IMG/VR virus record: IMGVR_UViG_3300036864_000176
Location: 4,486-68,485 of that record
Reading direction: 5' to 3' (one strand)
From: a virus
Length of the DNA stretch: 64,000 bases
Positions 3,230 to 36,881 of the stretch are shown in pieces (positions within the stretch are counted from its first letter, which is position 1; each line of letters begins with the position of its first letter). Below the pieces are notes generated by a model. That model made no database searches, was not told the origin of the DNA, and was given only the letters and a program-made list of their open reading frames with translations. The position numbers and the translations under genes are program-made.

Positions 3230-3372
3230 CGATTCCCTGGAAGACGATCGCGACCTACGCGGTGAAGCTGGCGATCTGGGCCTCTGATCATCCGGATTCA
3301 GTGATTCAGATCGTGCAGGAACTCCGGCCCAAGCCGGTCGAACCGGTCAGAAAGCCCACACCGCCAGCGTGA
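3226..3372 (+). CDS. Small hypothetical protein
   Basis: MTIPWKTIATYAVKLAIWASDHP; ATGA overlap. Confidence 0.55.
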   Translation: MTIPWKTIATYAVKLAIWASDHPDSVIQIVQELRPKPVEPVRKPTPPA

Positions 3373-3373
3373 G

Positions 3374-3637
3374 ATGGCGCCGACCTTCAACCCCAACCCC
3401 CCACCGAAAGACCCGGTCCGCCTCTCGGCCGCGCTCCGCACCGCCCTCATCGCCCACCGCCACCAGACGCGGCAGCTCTACAAGGATCTCGCGGTGGCGA
3501 TCGGGATCAGCCCGTCGATGCTGAGCCAGCTGCTGCACGGCAAGATCGTGCCGAAGGGGGATCCGCGGCTGGCGGCGATCGGACAGTACGTACAGGGGCA
3601 GGGGATTGACGTCATGGAGTGGGAGGAGCCCGCCTAA
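3374..3637 (+). CDS. XRE/Cro-like helix-turn-helix protein
   Basis: YKDLAVAIGISPSMLSQLLHGK. Confidence 0.8.
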   Translation: MAPTFNPNPPPKDPVRLSAALRTALIAHRHQTRQLYKDLAVAIGISPSMLSQLLHGKIVPKGDPRLAAIGQYVQGQGIDVMEWEEPA

Positions 3638-3752
3638 GTGACACAATTCGAGGTTGTGACAGGTTGATACACTTTCGTGCGATCCGACCAAAACCCCGTA
3701 TTTCGACACCGAATCCCCCCGCTAGACAGCCCGGCCGACACGAATTCGCGGC

Positions 3753-3780
3753 TTACGGCAAATCTTCGCGTTGGTATAAT
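3753..3780 (+). promoter_or_regulatory. Sigma70-type extended -10 promoter
   Basis: TGG-TATAAT (3772-3780), TTACGG at 3753-3758. Confidence 0.75.
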
Positions 3781-3787
3781 CCGCCCT

Positions 3788-4148
3788 GGCGGGACGCGCC
3801 CGGCGGCCGGCGGGAAACCCACCAGGTCAAAGGGCGAGCGGCGATGCCGGCTGAGACCGCTCCACCACGTTCCGCCATTCGCGATCGCTTCGCTAGTGCG
3901 CGCCCGGCGGGATTCCGCACCACCCCCGCTGGGACAGCGTGTCCCGTTTCGGCACATGCAGCCAGCCGAGCCGCAGCCGATAAGTCTGCTGACAGAGCCG
4001 TAGGATTTCTGCTGCGTGGGCTGGGGACGCACTCGTAGTGGGTGGTGTGGCGGCTCTGTCGATTTCCCTTCAACAATGCCTGAGTCGGTCGGTGCCTGCG
4101 GTCCAGATGTGACCGGGGTGGCCGGCGGCTCGTTTACATAGCTTTTTC
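3788..4148 (+). ncRNA. Candidate large structured non-coding RNA of unknown class
   Basis: Many nested stems and an 11-bp pseudoknot; first stem starts at the predicted +1; no credible ORF. Confidence 0.65.
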
Positions 4149-4149
4149 T

Positions 4150-4668
4150 ATGCTTCAGATCGATCGCCTCACGCCCGGGATGGTCCTGCTCTACAAGCCC
4201 ACCAGCGCCTTCGGCAAGCTCATCGTGTTCCACACCGGCGGGCCGTGCAGCCACGCCGAGCTCTACATCGGGGACGGCACTTCGCTGGCCTCGCGTGACG
4301 GTGAAGGCACCGGCCGCTACCCGCTGCGAACGACCGATCTCGGCTGGGTGCTCCGGCCGATGACTGCGTTCGATCAGCCGAAGGCGCTGGCGTGGTTCAC
4401 CGCCCAGGCGCACCAGAAGTACGGCTGGAGCGATTTGCTGCAGTTCTGCGGCTACCCGGTCAACGGCGACGGCGTGGTCTGCTCGCCGTTTGTCGTCTAC
4501 GCCCTGCGGGCCGGCGGTGTGCATGTCTTCAAGGACATTGCCCCGGAGCGGATTGCGCCCAATGACCTGCTGCTCTCCGAGTACCTCGAGGACGTGACGA
4601 CCTGGGTCTGTGGCGTGGTGGGCCCGTCCCGGGTGGGCGCATCGGTCGGGCTGCCGGTATCCGCCTGA
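4150..4668 (+). CDS. Permuted papain-like (YiiX/YaeF-type NlpC/P60) enzyme
   Basis: PGMVLL..SHAELYIG (His first)...Y...VVCSPFV (Cys last)...IAPNDL. Confidence 0.85.
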   Translation: MLQIDRLTPGMVLLYKPTSAFGKLIVFHTGGPCSHAELYIGDGTSLASRDGEGTGRYPLRTTDLGWVLRPMTAFDQPKALAWFTAQAHQKYGWSDLLQFCGYPVNGDGVVCSPFVVYALRAGGVHVFKDIAPERIAPNDLLLSEYLEDVTTWVCGVVGPSRVGASVGLPVSA

Positions 4669-4787
4669 GATGCCGACGACGACCATCTGCCGCCCGATCG
4701 CCCCCTCGACGTGGGAGTACCTCCGGCGGCTTGAGGAAATCGTCCGCCGCCCTGAAGCCTGGCGCACGGCCGCAGTAGAATCGCCGC

Positions 4788-5156
4788 GTGAAGCTGCTCG
4801 ACCGGTTCGCGCTGAAGACGACCGCGGGGATGGTGTGGTTGCTCGTGCGCGAACTCCGCCGCCTCACCCACGCCATCGAGGTGGGAGTCGATAGTTTCCG
4901 AACCGTCCACGGCCATCAGCCGGCCTTCGATGGGTTCAAACCGGTGTCTGAGTACGATGTAGACGCCGGTCGAACCGTTCCCCACTTTGAAAGCGACGCC
5001 CCGGACTACTTGCGGCTGGACATCATCGAGTGCCTGTGCCGCGAGCACCACATCCCGGTCGAGGACAGCACGAACCTGCTGGACATCGCCAGAGCTCAAC
5101 ACTGGATTGATGAGTCAGGGGATCTCGTCGTCATGCCGAAGGACTACCTGACCTAG
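4788..5156 (+). CDS. Hypothetical protein
   Basis: Clean ORF; TAGAAT 6 nt before GTG. Confidence 0.65.
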   Translation: MKLLDRFALKTTAGMVWLLVRELRRLTHAIEVGVDSFRTVHGHQPAFDGFKPVSEYDVDAGRTVPHFESDAPDYLRLDIIECLCREHHIPVEDSTNLLDIARAQHWIDESGDLVVMPKDYLT

Positions 5157-5637
5157 CCGCCTGCCGCCATCGTCGTTTGGCGGCGGCATCGATCGCTCGT
5201 TGAAGCTGGCGGCATCGGGCGCAGAGTCGCACACGACGTACCGGTTTCCCTTGTGATCGGAACTCACAGATAACGATGTTGTCCGGTGTGAGCTGGTGCC
5301 CGTAGCGGCAGTGCGTACGGACTGTGGCCCGCCGATTCTGAATCTGCTCGCGCCGAGTTGCCCACCTGACGTTCCCCGGTTCGTAGTTCCCATTGTTGTT
5401 CGGCCAGCGATCCAAGGTGTGCTTGGCAGACGGCCGCTTGCCGACGTAAGCGAAAAACACAACAAAACTGGCATCCCATGCCGGCCACATCCGGACGCCG
5501 CGGCCACCGTAGTACTTCCAGCTTGCGTTCTTCGGGTTGTTGCACCGAGACTTGGCGCAGATCCACGCCGCGTACTCAGGCGTTCGGCTCATCCCGTGGA
5601 TCGGATGCGATTTGGCGGGTACAGTAAGCGGAGACAT
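5131..5637 (-). CDS. HNH-type homing endonuclease (YGGRG family) with C-terminal Cys/His finger
   Basis: HGMSRTPEY..W...RC.NP....YYGGRG...HTLDR..NNGNYEPGNVRWAT; THCRYGH...CARC; AAGGAG before ATG 5637. Confidence 0.9.
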   Translation of the reverse strand: MSPLTVPAKSHPIHGMSRTPEYAAWICAKSRCNNPKNASWKYYGGRGVRMWPAWDASFVVFFAYVGKRPSAKHTLDRWPNNNGNYEPGNVRWATRREQIQNRRATVRTHCRYGHQLTPDNIVICEFRSQGKPVRRVRLCARCRQLQRAIDAAAKRRWRQAARSGSPSA

Positions 5638-6608: not shown

Positions 6609-7008
6609 CGATCACCGGCCGCGGCTGACGGCGGTCTACGACAACACCTGGCAGCGGCAGATTCGGCCGGGCACCTGTGTCGTGCACATCATTCCGGTCC
6701 ACGATCTGCGGCCGCACCGGGCCGGGGTCGATTGCGAGTGCCAGCCGCAGCCGATCGTGTCGCCGTTCGGCTACGCGCGTGGCCCGGTCCTGCTCCACAG
6801 TGCGTGGGACTGCCGCGAGCACCTGGCCCCGGACGAGCACGCCGAGCAGGTGACTGACGTGCTGATGCCGCACGCGGAGGAAGACGCGGCGGCCGACGAC
6901 GACGCTAACGATGAGAATGATTTGAGTGGCGTCGATGACGACGACGATGACGACGATGACGAAGACGACTACTACGACGATCTCGATGATCTCGACGGCG
7001 ACGACTGA
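6547..7008 (+). CDS. His/Cys metal-binding phage protein with poly-Asp tail
   Basis: HIIPVHDLRPH...CECQP...LLHSAWDCRE, then a ~45-residue Asp/Glu-rich tail. Confidence 0.7.
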   Translation: MDRSNPATDHPTPPTDPTPPDDHRPRLTAVYDNTWQRQIRPGTCVVHIIPVHDLRPHRAGVDCECQPQPIVSPFGYARGPVLLHSAWDCREHLAPDEHAEQVTDVLMPHAEEDAAADDDANDENDLSGVDDDDDDDDDEDDYYDDLDDLDGDD

Positions 7009-9025: not shown

Positions 9026-9238
9026 ATGGTGAACCGCCGCGCCTTTCTCCGCTCGCTCCTGGCGCTGCCGATCGCGGCGACCTTCGATGTCGAGAAGCTG
9101 CTCTGGGTACCGGGGCAGATGGTCGTCGTCCCACCGATGCCGACGGTGATCGCCGTTCGCTTCGCTCATATTTCCTACGAGGACATCCAGCGCGCGTACA
9201 TGGAATGCGTGCTCGGCCGGCTGCCGTACGATGGCTGA
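9026..9238 (+). CDS. Small protein with twin-arginine-like N-terminus
   Basis: MVNRRAFLRSLLALPIAA...LLWVPG. Confidence 0.65.
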   Translation: MVNRRAFLRSLLALPIAATFDVEKLLWVPGQMVVVPPMPTVIAVRFAHISYEDIQRAYMECVLGRLPYDG

Positions 9239-10199
9239 CTTCGTTTCCTTCCCACGAGCCGACAATCTCCTCTCGCCCAACCAGCAGCTGCTCGACGCCG
9301 CCCTCGCCGAAGCCCCCTACCGCGTCGCGCCCGGCTACGGGATGCGCTCGCTCAAGCCCGCCGACTGGAAGGCGCTCCAAGCCGAGCCGGACGACGCCGG
9401 CCTCTTCGATCGGCTCCAGGTCTACGAACCGCCGCGGAAGGGGTTCCTCTACGTCGTGCCGGTGGACGTCAGCAGCGGCATCGGGCTCGACCGCTCGGTC
9501 ATCGACGTCATCCGGGTCGCCACGATCCGCGAGCCGCATGAGCAGGTGGCGCAGTTCATCAGCGACCAGATCGATCCGTCCGACCTCGCTTACTTCGTCG
9601 ACGCCATCGGACGGCTCTACAGCGGCCGGGACGACCTCCCCGCCGAGGTTGCCGTCGAATGTGTCCCCGGCCCGGGCATGACGACGCAGGACACGCTCTT
9701 CAAGCGGCTCGGCTATCCGAACCTTTACATCTGGCAGGTGCTCGACAGCCGCGATCCGGCGAAAGCGTTCACGACGAAACTCGGCTGGTGGACGACCCGG
9801 CAGTCGCGGCCGATCATCCTGCAGGGGCTGCATCACGCGCTGAAGACGGTCGATCCCCACACCGGCGTGCCCGACTTCCGGCTCAACTCCCCGATCACGC
9901 GGCAGGAGCTGCGGACCTTCATCAGCCCCGGTCCAGTCTGGATGGCGGAGGCCGCCGAAGGCGCGTTCGACGACTGCGTGATGGCGGCCGCGATCGGCCT
10001 CTTCGTCGCTGAGCGCAAGCAGGAGACAACCCGCGAGACCATCCACGAAACGCGGCGGCGGCTCTCCGAGGAGTCGGCGCGGCTCACCGAACGGCGCCGC
10101 CAGGACAAGCACCCCATCACCGCGCAGACAACTGACGTAACTTTTGCTGAGCTTTATGGCTTGGCGGATCCGTACGACGCAGATCCACACATGATATAA
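9231..10199 (+). CDS. terL: Terminase large subunit, RNase H-like nuclease (C-terminal) part
   Basis: YEPP...VDVSSGIGLDRS...QVAQF...GYPNLY...GWWTT...DDCVMAAAI. Confidence 0.9.
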   Translation: MADFVSFPRADNLLSPNQQLLDAALAEAPYRVAPGYGMRSLKPADWKALQAEPDDAGLFDRLQVYEPPRKGFLYVVPVDVSSGIGLDRSVIDVIRVATIREPHEQVAQFISDQIDPSDLAYFVDAIGRLYSGRDDLPAEVAVECVPGPGMTTQDTLFKRLGYPNLYIWQVLDSRDPAKAFTTKLGWWTTRQSRPIILQGLHHALKTVDPHTGVPDFRLNSPITRQELRTFISPGPVWMAEAAEGAFDDCVMAAAIGLFVAERKQETTRETIHETRRRLSEESARLTERRRQDKHPITAQTTDVTFAELYGLADPYDADPHMI

Positions 10200-13257: not shown

Positions 13258-15459
13258 ATGGCGCCTGCAATCGTCCAGTCAGTCAACCGCGCTGAGAACC
13301 CACTCCTGAAGGCAACCGACAGCTTCCTCAAACCCGGGCAGACGACGGGGCCGGTTCTCGATTGGATCAAAGAGGCCGTTGCGGAGGGTGAGGCGTTCAT
13401 GCAGGCGGACCCTGCATGGGACACCGTGGATCGAAATCAAGACTACATCATGGGGCGGCAGCGGGCGCTCCAGATCACCGAGCTCAGGCCCGCCTACGTC
13501 AGTCACGCCGTGCTCAACGAGACCAAGCGCACGCGCCGCCGCCACGTCTCGGCGCTCACCGATCTCAAACCCGTCTACGCCTACCGTACGCCGAATCCGA
13601 ACTTCCAGAAGCAGGGCCTCCTCCTCAATCAGCTGACCGTCGTCCACTGGATCAATACGTTCGCCGACCTCGCCCTCGCTGACGCCGCCGACTATGCCTT
13701 TGCCTGCGGCAGCGGCGACATCGTCTGCGAGTACGATCCGTACTACGGACCGATGGGCGACATCGTCATGTCCGCGCGCGATCCGCGCGACACGATTCCG
13801 ATCCGGCCGTCGCGCGATGGGTCGCTTCAAAATTGGTTCGGCATGATCATCCGCGAAGCGCATTCGATCAATGTGCTGCGCCAGATGTACCCGAATCACC
13901 CGGCACTCCTGCAGCAGTCGGCGTCACCGTGGGGCGGCGGGGTCTTCACCAAGTGGAAGCGCGCGCTCAACCGCATCATGGGGTCGGGCTCGACCTCGAC
14001 GCTCGCCGGCCTGTCGAAGGTGCACTCCGGATCGTCGCAGCTCACCGGCAGCGAGATCATCCTCTACCGCTGCTACTTCAACGACGCCTCGATCAACACG
14101 ACCAGCCACACCGTGCTGATGGGCCCGCCCGGCGCGGCGTGGTCATATCTCGTTCCGCCCGGCGGCCGTCTTTATCCGCGCAAGCGCCTGGTCGTCGCCA
14201 CCGAAGCGGGCATCCTCTGGGACGGGCCGAACACCTACTGGCACGGCATGTTCCCGACGGCGCGGCTGCAGCTCGATCACGTCCCGTGGTCCTTCTTCGG
14301 CGTGCCGATTGTCGATTCCAACCTGCCGATTCAGGACGCGATCAACGACCTGCTGAACTACATGCTGGACGACATCCGGCAGAAGAAGCGGCCGCCGCTG
14401 GCCGGCAACGCGCGCGTCAGCGAGCCGAAGCTGAAACAGTTCGATCCGCTCAAGCCGAACGCGCGCATCCGCACCGAAGAGCAGGTCGGCACCGGCCTGC
14501 AGGTCGTGGAGATTCCGGATCTCCCCGCCTACACGCTCGAACTGTGGCAAGCGCTCCGCACGGCGTTTCACGAAGCAACCGGTGACTCCACACTCGACGC
14601 GCTGCAGGCCGCCGCCGCCAACCAATCCTTCGATCCCGAGCAGATCGAAGCCTTTATGAACGCCCTCAGCCCGGAGATGAAGCTCGAGGGCCGCCGGGTG
14701 GAGGTCTGCCTGCGCGAGCTGGCGGAGATGCAGAAGGCGAACATCTTCCAGTTCTACGACACGAAGAAGCGCATGGCGATTCTCGGCGATGCGGGGACGA
14801 CGCTCGCCGATTTTGACTTCGACCCCGGCAGTCTCATTCCGGCGATGGTGCCGGGGCAGCCTGGCTATCATCAGGAGCTCGACGCCAACCGTGATCAGAA
14901 GGATCGCGCGCAGTTCTTTCTCCAGCTGTTCACCTTCTACGTCACGCCCAATTCGCTGCTCGCGCTCAACGCGAAGTCGGAGCAGTTGAAGTACGTCCAG
15001 CTCGCACGCGCGGGCCTGTGCGATCGGTGGACGCTCTGGGAGAAGCTGGAGATTCCCAACGCCGGATCGCCGCCGAAGATGCTGCTGCCACTCGATGAAT
15101 CCGGCGAAGCGGGCCAGGCCGATCCCCAGCTGATCGCCGAAGTCGCTTCTGGCCTGCACCCGGACATGAGCCTCGATCCCAACACCGGCGAGCTGCTGGT
15201 ACTCCGCGCACCGACGACGATCACCGAGCGGCTGCTGGCCGAGCAGGAGCTGTTCATGGGCGGCATGACCGTCGGCCCGGCCGGATCGAGTGCCGGGCAG
15301 GGCCAGCCGACCAGCGGCGGCGGCCCCGGCGGCGGCGGCATGGGCGGGGCGCGGCAGGGGGCCGGGCGAAAGGCGACCGCGCAGAAGTCGCCGTCGATCG
15401 AGCGGCAGCCGATCCCCGGCGGCGGCGAGCGGATCAAGATGGTGGAGAGCCGACGCTGA
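13258..15459 (+). CDS. Portal protein
   Basis: 733 aa between terminase and scaffold/capsid; helical; P22-like pattern (N..KR....SALT..KP; PW...G......PIQD.IN). Confidence 0.85.
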   Translation: MAPAIVQSVNRAENPLLKATDSFLKPGQTTGPVLDWIKEAVAEGEAFMQADPAWDTVDRNQDYIMGRQRALQITELRPAYVSHAVLNETKRTRRRHVSALTDLKPVYAYRTPNPNFQKQGLLLNQLTVVHWINTFADLALADAADYAFACGSGDIVCEYDPYYGPMGDIVMSARDPRDTIPIRPSRDGSLQNWFGMIIREAHSINVLRQMYPNHPALLQQSASPWGGGVFTKWKRALNRIMGSGSTSTLAGLSKVHSGSSQLTGSEIILYRCYFNDASINTTSHTVLMGPPGAAWSYLVPPGGRLYPRKRLVVATEAGILWDGPNTYWHGMFPTARLQLDHVPWSFFGVPIVDSNLPIQDAINDLLNYMLDDIRQKKRPPLAGNARVSEPKLKQFDPLKPNARIRTEEQVGTGLQVVEIPDLPAYTLELWQALRTAFHEATGDSTLDALQAAAANQSFDPEQIEAFMNALSPEMKLEGRRVEVCLRELAEMQKANIFQFYDTKKRMAILGDAGTTLADFDFDPGSLIPAMVPGQPGYHQELDANRDQKDRAQFFLQLFTFYVTPNSLLALNAKSEQLKYVQLARAGLCDRWTLWEKLEIPNAGSPPKMLLPLDESGEAGQADPQLIAEVASGLHPDMSLDPNTGELLVLRAPTTITERLLAEQELFMGGMTVGPAGSSAGQGQPTSGGGPGGGGMGGARQGAGRKATAQKSPSIERQPIPGGGERIKMVESRR

Positions 15460-18307: not shown

Positions 18308-19480
18308 ATGCAACAGCTCGCGCGGGCAACGCGCTGGCTCGCGGCCCACCGCTTCCTCGTCGTGGTCGCCGGCCTGCTCGTTCTGGCCCTCTCCCATCCC
18401 GAAGTCCTCGTCCTCGCACCAGCCGTCATCGGCCTGGTCAACCTTGATCCGATCAACACGGCCACGACGAAGAACATCATGCCGGGGCTGGCCGACAACT
18501 TCTTCAAGAACGATCCGCTGATGGAGTTCCTGAAGGCGCGGCACCACGTCTATCCCGGCGGCCCGCAGATCCAGGAGAACTTCCTGTTCAAGCCGCTCAT
18601 CGGGCAGGCGTACGCCAAGGGCGTCGGCGGCTTCAACATCAGCAAGCGGCAGACCTTCGCCGGCCTGCTCTTCGGGCCGAAGTACTACGAAGTGTCAGTC
18701 CCCGAGTACCTCGAGGAAGTCGAGATCGAGGTCAACGGCCCGACTGCCGTGCTCTCGATGGTGAAGACCGACTATGGCAACGCGGCCCTCACGATGTCGG
18801 CGATCCTGGCGATCGACAACTACCAGGGCGGCCAGGATCTCGGGGGCGTCGACCGCACCCTGCATATCAACGGTCTCGCTGAGCTCGGGGACGGGCTGGC
18901 CGCCTCCTGGGACGGCAACACCTATCTCAGTTATGGCAGCCAGACCATTGCGGGGGTCGGCGCCGCGATCAAGACGCCGGTCGGGCTCATCGCGGCCAAC
19001 ATCAACGGCCCGATCACCTTCCGCGCGCTCGAGCACAGTTACCAGAGCTGTGTGATCGGCCGTGAGCACCCCGTCATCGGCGTCACGACCAACCGCTGCA
19101 CCGGGTTCATCTCGGAGAGCTTTCAGCCGCATCAGGTGATCGATTCGGTCGAACCGACCATCGGCTACGTTGGGCTGAAGTTCAAGCGGGCGACGATCGT
19201 CGAGAGTCAGTACGCGCCTGGCGCCGACGGCGTGAACGACGCCGACCTGGGCAACTACAACGCCTCCGGGGAGACCTTCTGGTGGCTCAATCCCGGCCCC
19301 GAAGGCGAAGACGCCTACATCAAGCTGCGGATCTCGGTGTCGCCGCTGTTCCAGTTCGGCACGACCGGTTTCAAGCCGGCGCAGGACAACACCGTCGTCG
19401 TGGCGCAGGTGCTCTTCGCCGGTAACTTGACGGTGCGCGCGCGCCGGCTGCAGCGGGCGCTGTTCGGCATCACCGGGTAG
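18308..19480 (+). CDS. Major capsid protein with hydrophobic N-terminal leader
   Basis: IN..T...I.P.LADNFFKNDPL...L...GG..I pattern; size and position. Confidence 0.85.
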   Translation: MQQLARATRWLAAHRFLVVVAGLLVLALSHPEVLVLAPAVIGLVNLDPINTATTKNIMPGLADNFFKNDPLMEFLKARHHVYPGGPQIQENFLFKPLIGQAYAKGVGGFNISKRQTFAGLLFGPKYYEVSVPEYLEEVEIEVNGPTAVLSMVKTDYGNAALTMSAILAIDNYQGGQDLGGVDRTLHINGLAELGDGLAASWDGNTYLSYGSQTIAGVGAAIKTPVGLIAANINGPITFRALEHSYQSCVIGREHPVIGVTTNRCTGFISESFQPHQVIDSVEPTIGYVGLKFKRATIVESQYAPGADGVNDADLGNYNASGETFWWLNPGPEGEDAYIKLRISVSPLFQFGTTGFKPAQDNTVVVAQVLFAGNLTVRARRLQRALFGITG

Positions 19481-36191: not shown

Positions 36192-36881
36192 GTGGCGGGC
36201 TACAACTACCTCACCCAGATCCGCGACCGCGCAACCCGGGACACCCTCAAGGGCTTGACCGACCGGGTGAACGCACTCGAACGATCTGCCGACACGATCG
36301 GCACCGTCACCGAACCGCTCACCGACGATCTCAACGCCGGTAGTCACCGTCTCACGCGCGTCGCGCCGCCGACGGCCGACACCGACGCGGTCACCCTCCG
36401 CTTTCTCAAGAGCTATGTCGACGCCCGCCTCTCGGCCGCGGGCCTGATCGATGCGGCCGGGAACGCCGTGCGTCCGACGGACACCGACAGTGGCCAGACC
36501 GCGGCGGGCGTCGCAGCCGCCGGGGCCGACGGACACCCGACTGTCTCCGGACTCACCGCCTACAACGCCGGCCTCATCATCGGCGGGGTCGGGCATGAGT
36601 TCCCGGCGCTGGTCGCCCCCGCCGTCGACGAAGCGACGTTCGATGCGAACCGGCTCGAGCTGCTGCGCCGCACGATCTGGCACCTGATTCAATTCGGCTT
36701 CACCGCCGGACGCCAGCAGAACCCGACCGGGATCCTCTCGACCGACAAGATCGCGCTCATCGAAGACGGGCAGCTGCGCGCGTTCGACTGCTACACCGGC
36801 ACGTTCACGGCGGGCCTCACGGTTCAGGCGCTGCAGGTCTATCCGGCGGTCCTGGTAGCCGACAGCGGGATCGCGGACTAG
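36192..36881 (+). CDS. Tail-needle/fibre-like protein with C-terminal globular domain
   Basis: Coiled coil, LNAGSHRLTRVAPPTADTDAVT.R..K.YVD (YadA-stalk-like), then domain shared with 47924-48622. Confidence 0.65.
   Translation: MAGYNYLTQIRDRATRDTLKGLTDRVNALERSADTIGTVTEPLTDDLNAGSHRLTRVAPPTADTDAVTLRFLKSYVDARLSAAGLIDAAGNAVRPTDTDSGQTAAGVAAAGADGHPTVSGLTAYNAGLIIGGVGHEFPALVAPAVDEATFDANRLELLRRTIWHLIQFGFTAGRQQNPTGILSTDKIALIEDGQLRAFDCYTGTFTAGLTVQALQVYPAVLVADSGIAD

Follow-up and report, generated by a model that had tools for sequence, protein, structure and literature searches.

The gene-free gap at positions 3638-4149 of a 64,000-nt stretch of phage DNA (hereafter the window) is probably the control region and 5' leader of a transcription unit headed by a YiiX-like peptidase gene, a reading that we hold with moderate confidence because its evidence base is four sequences. 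The window covers bases 4486-68485 of the 68,485-bp IMG/VR virus record IMGVR_UViG_3300036864_000176 (completeness rating 100%), belongs to an uncultured soil phage and has a GC content of ~65%; the gap, 512 nt long, separates an 87-aa helix-turn-helix (HTH) gene from a 172-aa peptidase-like gene. A first-pass annotation had placed here a promoter-driven, highly structured RNA of ~360 nt belonging to no known class. Our comparison points to a probable regulatory leader, of a type already described in phages, rather than a new free-standing RNA machine: a hairpin abuts the start codon of the next gene and leaves no room for a second promoter, so that the RNA would be at least the 5' leader of the peptidase unit.

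Conserved core and start-proximal hairpin

Relatives of the peptidase number 12 in a large protein collection (identity 44-84%), and alignment-based scans returned 11 viral, 10 metagenome and one genome locus. The gap itself is common only to L009 among the viral loci, and to L013, L014 and L018 among the metagenome loci; L009 is an IMG/VR locus, and L013 and L014 form a near-identical pair. Colinear blastn blocks of 71-84% identity link the gap of the window to those of these relatives, while the flanking proteins are 44-51% identical and the peptidases of the gap-sharing loci 44-73%. The order HTH gene, gap, (small open reading frame, ORF), peptidase gene, 122-aa gene is common to the window, L009 and L018. 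Since both the HTH gene and the 122-aa gene are common to L009 and L018, the layout in which the gap lies between HTH and peptidase genes is ancestral.

Searches beyond these loci added little. The GenBank phage collection gave no match in a sensitive blastn search with positions 3300-4700 or a tblastn search with the peptidase, and single-protein scans of IMG/VR gave no relative. Scans of IMG/VR with the HTH alignment and with a further one (A6) recovered the contig of L009 only, as did three DNA patterns, except that the one for domain 1 gave two additional chance matches within a coding sequence (L030 and L031). The genome scan produced one distant match, in a Vicinamibacterales metagenome-assembled genome, without the leader, and alignment A6 found 0 matches in 401 genomes of the phylum. 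Among public sequencing runs, two DNA runs and no RNA run hold the identical sequence, with no variants, and one of the two is probably its source.

The part of the gap aligned across four lineages (window, L009, L018 and L014) comprises the following elements:

3937-3982, + strand: core block with a small hairpin (3937-3942/3954-3959), GCACATGCAGC and an invariant octamer AGCCGATA (3975-3982); invariant alignment columns
4040-4070, + strand: consensus helix 3, formed between a G-rich and a pyrimidine-rich segment; 94% of its cells are paired, largely as G-U
4081-4132, + strand: long imperfect hairpin of ~52 nt; same architecture in all four lineages
4133-4149, + strand: U-rich tail GTTTACATAGCTTTTTCT up to the start codon; no evident Shine-Dalgarno sequence

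In the four-sequence alignment of the core (~3937-4132), 90.2% of the cells of the consensus structure are paired, against 36.5-55.6% when the partners are slid, and nine pairs carry changes on both sides, against 0-4 in the slid controls; none of 500 shuffles reaches the consensus values. The core block is 80-84% identical to L018 and L013/L014 by blastn, and the window and L018 differ in its small hairpin by one C:G to U:A exchange. Support for helix 3 is weak, because G-rich and pyrimidine-rich runs pair in many registers (55.6% when slid by -3).

Pair-preserving changes are also seen in the long hairpin. Its 5-bp tip (4099-4103/4111-4115) carries a conserved 7-nt loop, C-R-K-ATGT, and reads CGGTC/GACCG, CCGTC/GACGG, CCGCC/GGCGG and CCGTT/GACGG in the four lineages; all tip pairs are kept, with two double changes, and the basal helix is 79.5% paired. 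Folding z scores for the hairpin are -0.98, -2.53, -2.63 and -2.45 by lineage, and it is more stable on the + than on the - strand in every lineage, by 12.3, 13.1, 1.8 and 2.3 kcal/mol. From the end of the hairpin to the first start codon there are 17, 24, 19 and 26 nt in the window, L009, L018 and L014, respectively. Directly after the stem the sequence reads GUUU in the window, UUUCC in L014, UUUUU in L018 and UGUC in L009, and the counterparts of the tail are TTTCCTCGCTTTTTCTACC in L014, TTTTTAC in L018 and TGTCAGC in L009. The four sequences thus show a conserved fold, a fixed short distance to the start codon and covariation, the features that define a cis-regulatory leader of the riboswitch or attenuator kind.

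The conserved loop also has a possible partner upstream: CACAU (3953-3957) is complementary to the loop sequence AUGUG (4107-4111) in the window, L018 and L014, the complementarity is absent in L009, and L016 is predicted to fold with a 7-bp form of it. Both segments are invariant, so the pairing carries no covariation.

A covariance model of the leader (model R1) finds a single copy per phage, the next best match in the window scoring 8.4 bits (E 1). Among 151 genomes of the order Vicinamibacterales it gave three weak matches. The best of them (25.2 bits) was rejected as false because it sits within a 400-aa ORF, the product of which we take to resemble 3-dehydroquinate synthase; the others (L028, 23.2 bits; L029, 20 bits) are confined to 29-43 nt of the hairpin.

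In L009 and L018 the unit starts with a small membrane-type ORF of 51-55 aa between the leader and the peptidase gene (L009 5846-6001, MPPGSALLVV...; L018 1950-2117, MPSGPVLAL...). This ORF is missing in the window and L014, and L011 has a comparable small protein ahead of its peptidase region (5288-5452); the product may be a holin-like partner. The peptidase start codon of the window (4140-4152 region) has no Shine-Dalgarno sequence and is preceded by GCTTTTTCT, as is likewise the case in L014; the small ORFs of L009 and L018, unlike the window peptidase gene, do have GGTGA or AGGA before their starts.

Probable promoter region and predicted 5' three-way junction

Upstream of the core, the gap holds three further elements:

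3640-3746, no strand assigned: upstream regulatory DNA with three GACAC-n-AAT motif copies (3640, 3705 and 3737), from pattern matches
3772-3780, + strand: extended -10 element TGGTATAAT; predicted start at T3787/G3788
3787-3877, + strand: domain 1, with a 10-bp closing helix, a GGAAACC-capped arm and a second, 7-bp arm; RNAalifold on the window and L009

The promoter of the first-pass annotation is borne out as likely: TGGTATAAT is present, and the -10 is GGTATAATC in the window and L009, with GGTAGAATC at the corresponding position of L018, the consensus GGTAKAATC being kept in all three lineages whose contig covers that part (window, L009 and L018). TGNTATAAT occurs once in the 64 kb, where 0.05 occurrences are expected, and five of 100 shuffles reach one. 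The simplest reading is a promoter that would rely on its -10, perhaps together with an activator.

Candidate operator or activator sites are provided by the GACAC-n-AAT motif. Sites 3705 and 3737 are kept in L009 and L018, ~33-34 bp apart, with 3640 as an extra copy in the window, and the blocks TTCGACACCGAAT and CGACACGAWTT..GnCTTACG are common to all three. The spacing from the conserved CTTACG to the -10 varies among these lineages (17, 19 and 55 nt). In L009, a 38-nt insertion (5459-5496) with a 7-bp palindrome (GGTGCGC...GCGCACC) lies between the GACAC/CTTACG block and the -10 and shifts the upstream sites farther from the promoter.

Two side observations concern the -10 motif. The octamer GTAKAATC occurs three times in the window (3774, 4775 and 8821), always on the + strand, with 0.71 expected and four of 100 shuffles reaching three, and it may be a -10 motif of this phage group. 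At the second site, GTAGAATC (4775-4790) places it 6 nt ahead of the GTG start of gene 4788-5156, and the layout of TAGAAT (TAGACT in L009), 6 or 9 nt and GTG is kept in four lineages (L009 ~6713-6727; L014 ~860-876; L015 1328-1346; L017 1334-1352 in the relatives). This arrangement suggests a leaderless or near-leaderless mRNA of that gene; alternatively, coding constraint may explain the octamer at 4775, as a conserved frame (..IVRR..VES.., window ORF 4610-4894) overlaps the gene start.

Domain 1 begins where transcription is predicted to begin: in the window as in L009, its closing helix follows the -10 by 7 nt and opens at the base where the transcript should start. The stem 3788-3796/3868-3876 comprises eight Watson-Crick pairs and one G-U pair, and both CGCCC/GGGCG and AGCGG/CCGCT are present in the window. 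The consensus of 27 pairs in four helices is fully paired in both sequences (27/27), with six pairs changed on both sides and three on one side; controls with partners slid by 1-3 columns are 30-50% paired and show no double change, and ten of 500 shuffles reach the observed pairing and double-change values. Folded by itself, domain 1 has a z score of -2.0 in the window (7/200 shuffles as stable) and -3.44 in L009 (0/200), and it folds alike on both strands (-48.2 vs -48.2). The first-pass model of this domain, with its closing stem, GAAA-capped arm and AGCGG/CCGCT arm, is retained in L009 through compensatory changes.

Gene context and window-specific sequence

Recognizable phage families are present in the window but distant, and the + strand carries almost every gene between ~2.8 kb and 47 kb. 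Terminase-like, portal and capsid genes lie downstream of the peptidase-fold gene on the same strand; a role of the peptidase in lysis is putative. The genes referred to here are:

503-1072, - strand: HNH endonuclease (phage-family match)
3374-3637, + strand: XRE/Cro-type HTH gene, 87 aa, directly upstream of the gap, with a signal in GC content at third codon positions (GC3)
4150-4668, + strand: first gene after the leader, 172 aa, permuted NlpC/P60 (YiiX-like) cysteine-peptidase fold, GC3 0.88
9231-10199, + strand: terminase-like gene (phage-family match)
13258-15459, + strand: portal (phage-family match)
18308-19480, + strand: major head protein (phage-family match)

The HTH assignment is weak: the 87-aa protein matches Pfam HTH_3 with E 0.002 and 18.6 bits, under the 23-bit cut-off, and has weak PDB matches to XRE/SinR regulators (E 0.2-0.7). 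Its gene is syntenic in L009 (4876-5220) and L018 (1287-1565), with 47-50% identity and a common C-terminal EWEEPA. The 172-aa protein matches phrog_1128 (E 3e-19) and, under the cut-off, NLPC_P60 (E 0.0017); its AlphaFold model has a predicted local distance difference test (pLDDT) score of 78.3, and Foldseek matched it to 3kw0 (E 1.3e-5, template modeling score 0.65) and to YiiX 2if6 (E 0.07). The phrog_1128 label, 'enoyl-CoA hydratase/carnithine racemase-like', is at odds with this peptidase fold.

The gap between these two genes is non-coding. GC3 is flat in every frame over ~3660-4140, whereas both flanking genes have GC3 ~0.9; Pfam gave no match in the four ORFs overlapping the gap; and of the 29 internal gaps that pairwise comparison shows in the core alignment, 26 have lengths not divisible by three. 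On this evidence coding of the gap was rejected, and with it the conserved protein in an overlapping ORF that, according to the first-pass annotation, would have overturned its proposal.

All the stems, the 12-mer repeat and the -10 listed in that annotation exist at their positions, and it is their conservation and rarity that differ. Between domain 1 and the core lies a stretch mostly confined to the window:

3878-3936, + strand: linker that carries the 12-mer a second time, hairpin 3903-3933 and one strand (5') of a proposed pseudoknot; mostly gapped in L009 and L018

The 12-mer CGCGCCCGGCGG, said to open both RNA domains, does occur in two exact copies (3795 and 3899), the second of which is confined to this window-specific insertion. 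Hairpin 3903-3911/3925-3933 is present in the window but falls inside the same insertion and is not conserved. The long pseudoknot (3915-3925/4040-4050, 11 nt, 91% complementary) fares no better, as L009 and L018 have a 20-column gap where its 5' partner would be, and in L009 a gap takes the place of the 3' partner too. The perfect 10-bp stem 3991-4000/4051-4060 and the 8-bp pair 3967-3974/4125-4132 are found in the window, and across the alignment 52.8% of their cells are paired, against 44-55% when slid, with 291 of 500 shuffles doing as well. Covariation thus speaks for domain 1 and the tip of the 3' hairpin and not for the pseudoknot or these two domain-2 stems. Positions 3878-3937 repeat the 12-mer CGCGCCCGGCGG together with the CCACC-rich run of domain 1, and the window-specific stretch looks like a partial local duplication of that domain, which would explain why both domains open with one 12-mer.

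Most of the listed stems and repeats are not beyond chance expectation. Among 200 shuffles of the 361-nt region, 28 contain a perfect stem of at least 10 bp, 102 a stem of at least 12 pairs when G-U is allowed, and 57 at least 13 stems of at least 9 bp; the flanking coding sequences are also linked by inverted repeats of similar length. Above chance are the -10 element, the exact 12-mer repeat (reached by just 3/200 shuffles), domain 1 alone and the non-coding state.

Alternative readings, known phage RNAs and implications

Several observations weigh against a leader with a conserved regulatory fold, a reading built from sequence comparison and computed folds. The whole 361-nt region has a minimum free energy of -165.1 kcal/mol on the + strand, compared with -163.7 +/- 6.1 in dinucleotide shuffles (z -0.24; 33/100 as stable), so that 'highly structured' does not describe the region as a whole; the - strand gives z +0.32. 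The window's own 4081-4132 hairpin reaches a z score of just -0.98, its U-run (GUUU) is short and that of L009 is missing. A simple terminator scan called no terminator in the window leader or L018, and terminator-like sites occur at chance level phage-wide (13 vs 12.1). At the promoter, where a sigma-70 type would have -35 and -10 hexamers 16-18 nt apart, no -35 (TTGACA-like) passes the rules of a simple scanner, which calls no sigma-70 promoter. Domain 1 is absent from L018, which makes it an accessory module, and L015-L017 (59% protein identity) have the same genes with a different ~170-nt leader behind TGGTATGAT that is not matched by model R1 and not stably folded (z +0.74 and -0.41). The conservation tests draw on four independent sequences for the core (window, L009, L018, L013/L014) and two for domain 1, and the consensus structures were fitted on the same alignments in which their pairs were then counted. 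In the hairpin tip, three of the five differences between the window and L009 would be synonymous in one frame, which is kept for at most ~10 codons.

Much of this would suit a promoter followed by an ordinary long 5' untranslated region, the hairpins of which have no specific role, the conserved blocks being DNA-level protein sites or neutral leftovers and the covariation a product of few related sequences and of fitting. Chance-level stems and the whole-region z score of -0.24, comparison of only two to four sequences with structures fitted on the same alignments, G-rich/pyrimidine-rich helices that pair in many registers (again the 55.6% at slide -3) and the ability of L015-L017 to manage with a different, unfolded leader all agree with that account. 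We nevertheless consider it unlikely: the non-coding blocks (71-84%) match or exceed the conservation of the flanking proteins (44-51%), the hairpin tip has two double changes around an invariant loop and domain 1 six with no broken pair, the strand asymmetry has the same direction in all four lineages, and the distance to the start codon is constant. The first-pass proposal of a free-standing, trans-acting phage RNA, which would run for ~345-360 nt from the promoter at 3775 to hairpin 4081-4132 and serve as a decoy or in packaging, immunity or the regulation of host or phage targets, shares with the leader reading the conserved promoter and the folded modules with pair-preserving changes. It also draws on the UUU or UUUUU directly after the hairpin in three of four lineages, on the lack of an Rfam family, and on the Stx phage PR' leader, which when terminated is reported to act as a small RNA (PMC7547250). 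We judge it unlikely, and less likely than an mRNA leader, given that the next gene starts 17-26 nt past the hairpin in all four lineages with no promoter of its own between, that the terminator scan finds nothing, that the window holds no second copy or target-like complement, and that the modules vary by lineage, L018 having lost domain 1 and L015-L017 carrying another leader, as would suit a cis element better than a conserved trans-acting RNA; a terminated leader RNA may still exist alongside the mRNA, and would be the strongest version of the first-pass idea.

Two further accounts were weighed. Inverted repeats could act at the DNA level, marking an origin of replication or a site for packaging (pac/cos) or recombination, and the gap does lie upstream of packaging genes (terminase-like 9231-10199, portal 13258-15459), contains many inverted repeats and has a domain 1 that folds equally on both strands (-48.2 in each case). 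Such an element is improbable here, for the + strand, through its G-U pairs, gives the more stable fold of the 3' hairpin and of the core, the element stands directly behind a conserved -10 in gene orientation, several genes separate the gap from the terminase, and it has neither iterons nor tandem repeats nor an AT-rich stretch for unwinding (GC 0.585-0.70). ORFs of 41-139 aa overlap the gap, and the third-position differences between the window and L009 in the tip (3/5) fall in a frame C-G/R-P-D-V-T-G (4097-4123) that might belong to an unrecognized small protein gene or leader peptide. Relative to the ORF that follows, that frame is in register in L009 and out of register in L018, and in the window a stop codon closes it; with no conserved start codon, no GC3 signal, no Pfam match and 26/29 gap lengths that are not multiples of three, we regard a hidden coding sequence as very improbable.

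The RNA matches no known class, as the first-pass annotation had held. At gathering scores, no Rfam 15 family matched anywhere in the 64 kb. Relaxing the limit to E 10 for positions 3600-4200 brought up a single match, to P33, with 14.2 bits (E 2.8) where the gathering score is 45, and with E up to 1 the loci L018, L014 and L025 gave 0 matches, leaving nothing usable from the window or its relatives. ARAGORN found no tRNA or tmRNA in 3600-4200; its tRNA-Leu(GAG) call elsewhere in the window (36279-36362, - strand), within the + strand ORF 36192-36881, is probably false. A hammerhead-like core, a retron, omega or bridge RNA and a packaging RNA (pRNA) were considered and dropped, there being no Rfam match and no adjacent reverse transcriptase, TnpB or recombinase. 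Searches of the whole record (68,485 bp) for the Q-family antiterminators PF06530 and PF03589 gave 0 matches.

Its closest counterparts among known systems would be functional analogues, namely lambdoid leaders, put RNAs, 5' stabilizers and the C4/CI RNAs. The lambdoid and Stx late leader consists of the PR' promoter, a short terminated leader (6S RNA or StxS) and tR', with readthrough brought about by Q. The likenesses are a promoter just past a small regulator gene, a leader of a few hundred nucleotides closing in a hairpin, and, downstream on the same strand, a gene that would act on the cell wall, followed by packaging and structural genes. If terminated, the leader could also exist as a discrete RNA, like the Stx phage PR' leader, which is reported to act as a small RNA (PMC7547250). 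In contrast to those leaders, the regulator upstream is here an XRE-type HTH protein without a Q-family match in the 68-kb record, no canonical terminator is called, sequence and Rfam relations are lacking, and the further -10-like octamer at 4775, past the peptidase gene, means that the unit may be short.

The put RNAs of phage HK022 act in cis to make RNA polymerase resistant to terminators; they consist of two stem-loops and are not known to have a long closing helix. Domain 1 resembles putL as a compact multi-stem element of ~70-90 nt at the transcript start, ahead of a possibly terminating hairpin, but it shares no sequence similarity with put and is missing in L018, the lineage with the best U-run. 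Simple 5' hairpins, such as those of the E. coli ompA leader and Bacillus phage SP82, stabilize mRNAs by removing the single-stranded 5' end and so protecting against 5'-end-dependent decay. In the window and L009, domain 1 would likewise leave no free 5' end, since its closing helix opens at the predicted +1, although a three-way junction whose arms covary, one of them under a GAAA-type cap, exceeds the needs of a simple 5' cap. In the immunity RNAs C4 of P1/P7 and CI of P4, which are embedded in leaders, pairing occurs with sites further along the same leader. The 11-nt loop-to-distal complement and the CACAU/AUGUG match follow a similar logic; unlike those systems, there is no Rfam C4 match, the 11-nt pairing is window-specific, and CACAU/AUGUG is invariant and absent in L009. 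The pRNA of phi29 is also promoter-driven, has a three-way junction and belongs to a phage context near packaging genes, but here there is no Rfam match, the packaging module is of the terminase type, and none of the pRNA loop-loop pairing is seen.

If the gap does control the peptidase unit and supply its leader, the adjacent HTH protein would bind the tandem GACAC sites and set the activity of the promoter. The 5' junction, placed at the predicted +1, may shield the mRNA 5' end from 5'-dependent decay or mark the elongating polymerase, and the start-codon-proximal hairpin might gate the downstream gene through partial termination, processing or a block to initiation, with a factor that reads the conserved loop acting together with it. 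Should the hairpin terminate part of the transcripts, a discrete ~345-nt RNA would accumulate as a by-product, as in the lambda/Stx PR' leader. A bolder version, which we offer tentatively and ourselves find rather doubtful, is a modular phage RNA switch in which a three-way junction at +1 is coupled to a start-proximal hairpin, the invariant C-R-K-AUGU loop of which is recognized either by the CACAU motif upstream or by a factor from phage or host. Such a switch would time a cell-wall peptidase, and perhaps lysis, by RNA-based antitermination or translational gating without a Q- or N-type protein, and would represent a put-like or riboswitch-like class seen so far only in uncultured high-GC soil phages.

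Should the leader reading fail, the region would serve as a caution that stems of 10-12 bp and 'pseudoknots' arise by chance in DNA of 65% GC. The regulatory RNAs of uncultured soil phages are almost unmapped, and here a non-coding stretch conserved equally to or above its neighboring proteins combines a likely promoter, candidate operators and two folded modules that belong to no Rfam family. If the hairpin does gate the cell-wall peptidase, it would provide a simple handle on gene timing in a phage group without a cultured host, and would also be a candidate new cis-regulatory RNA motif.

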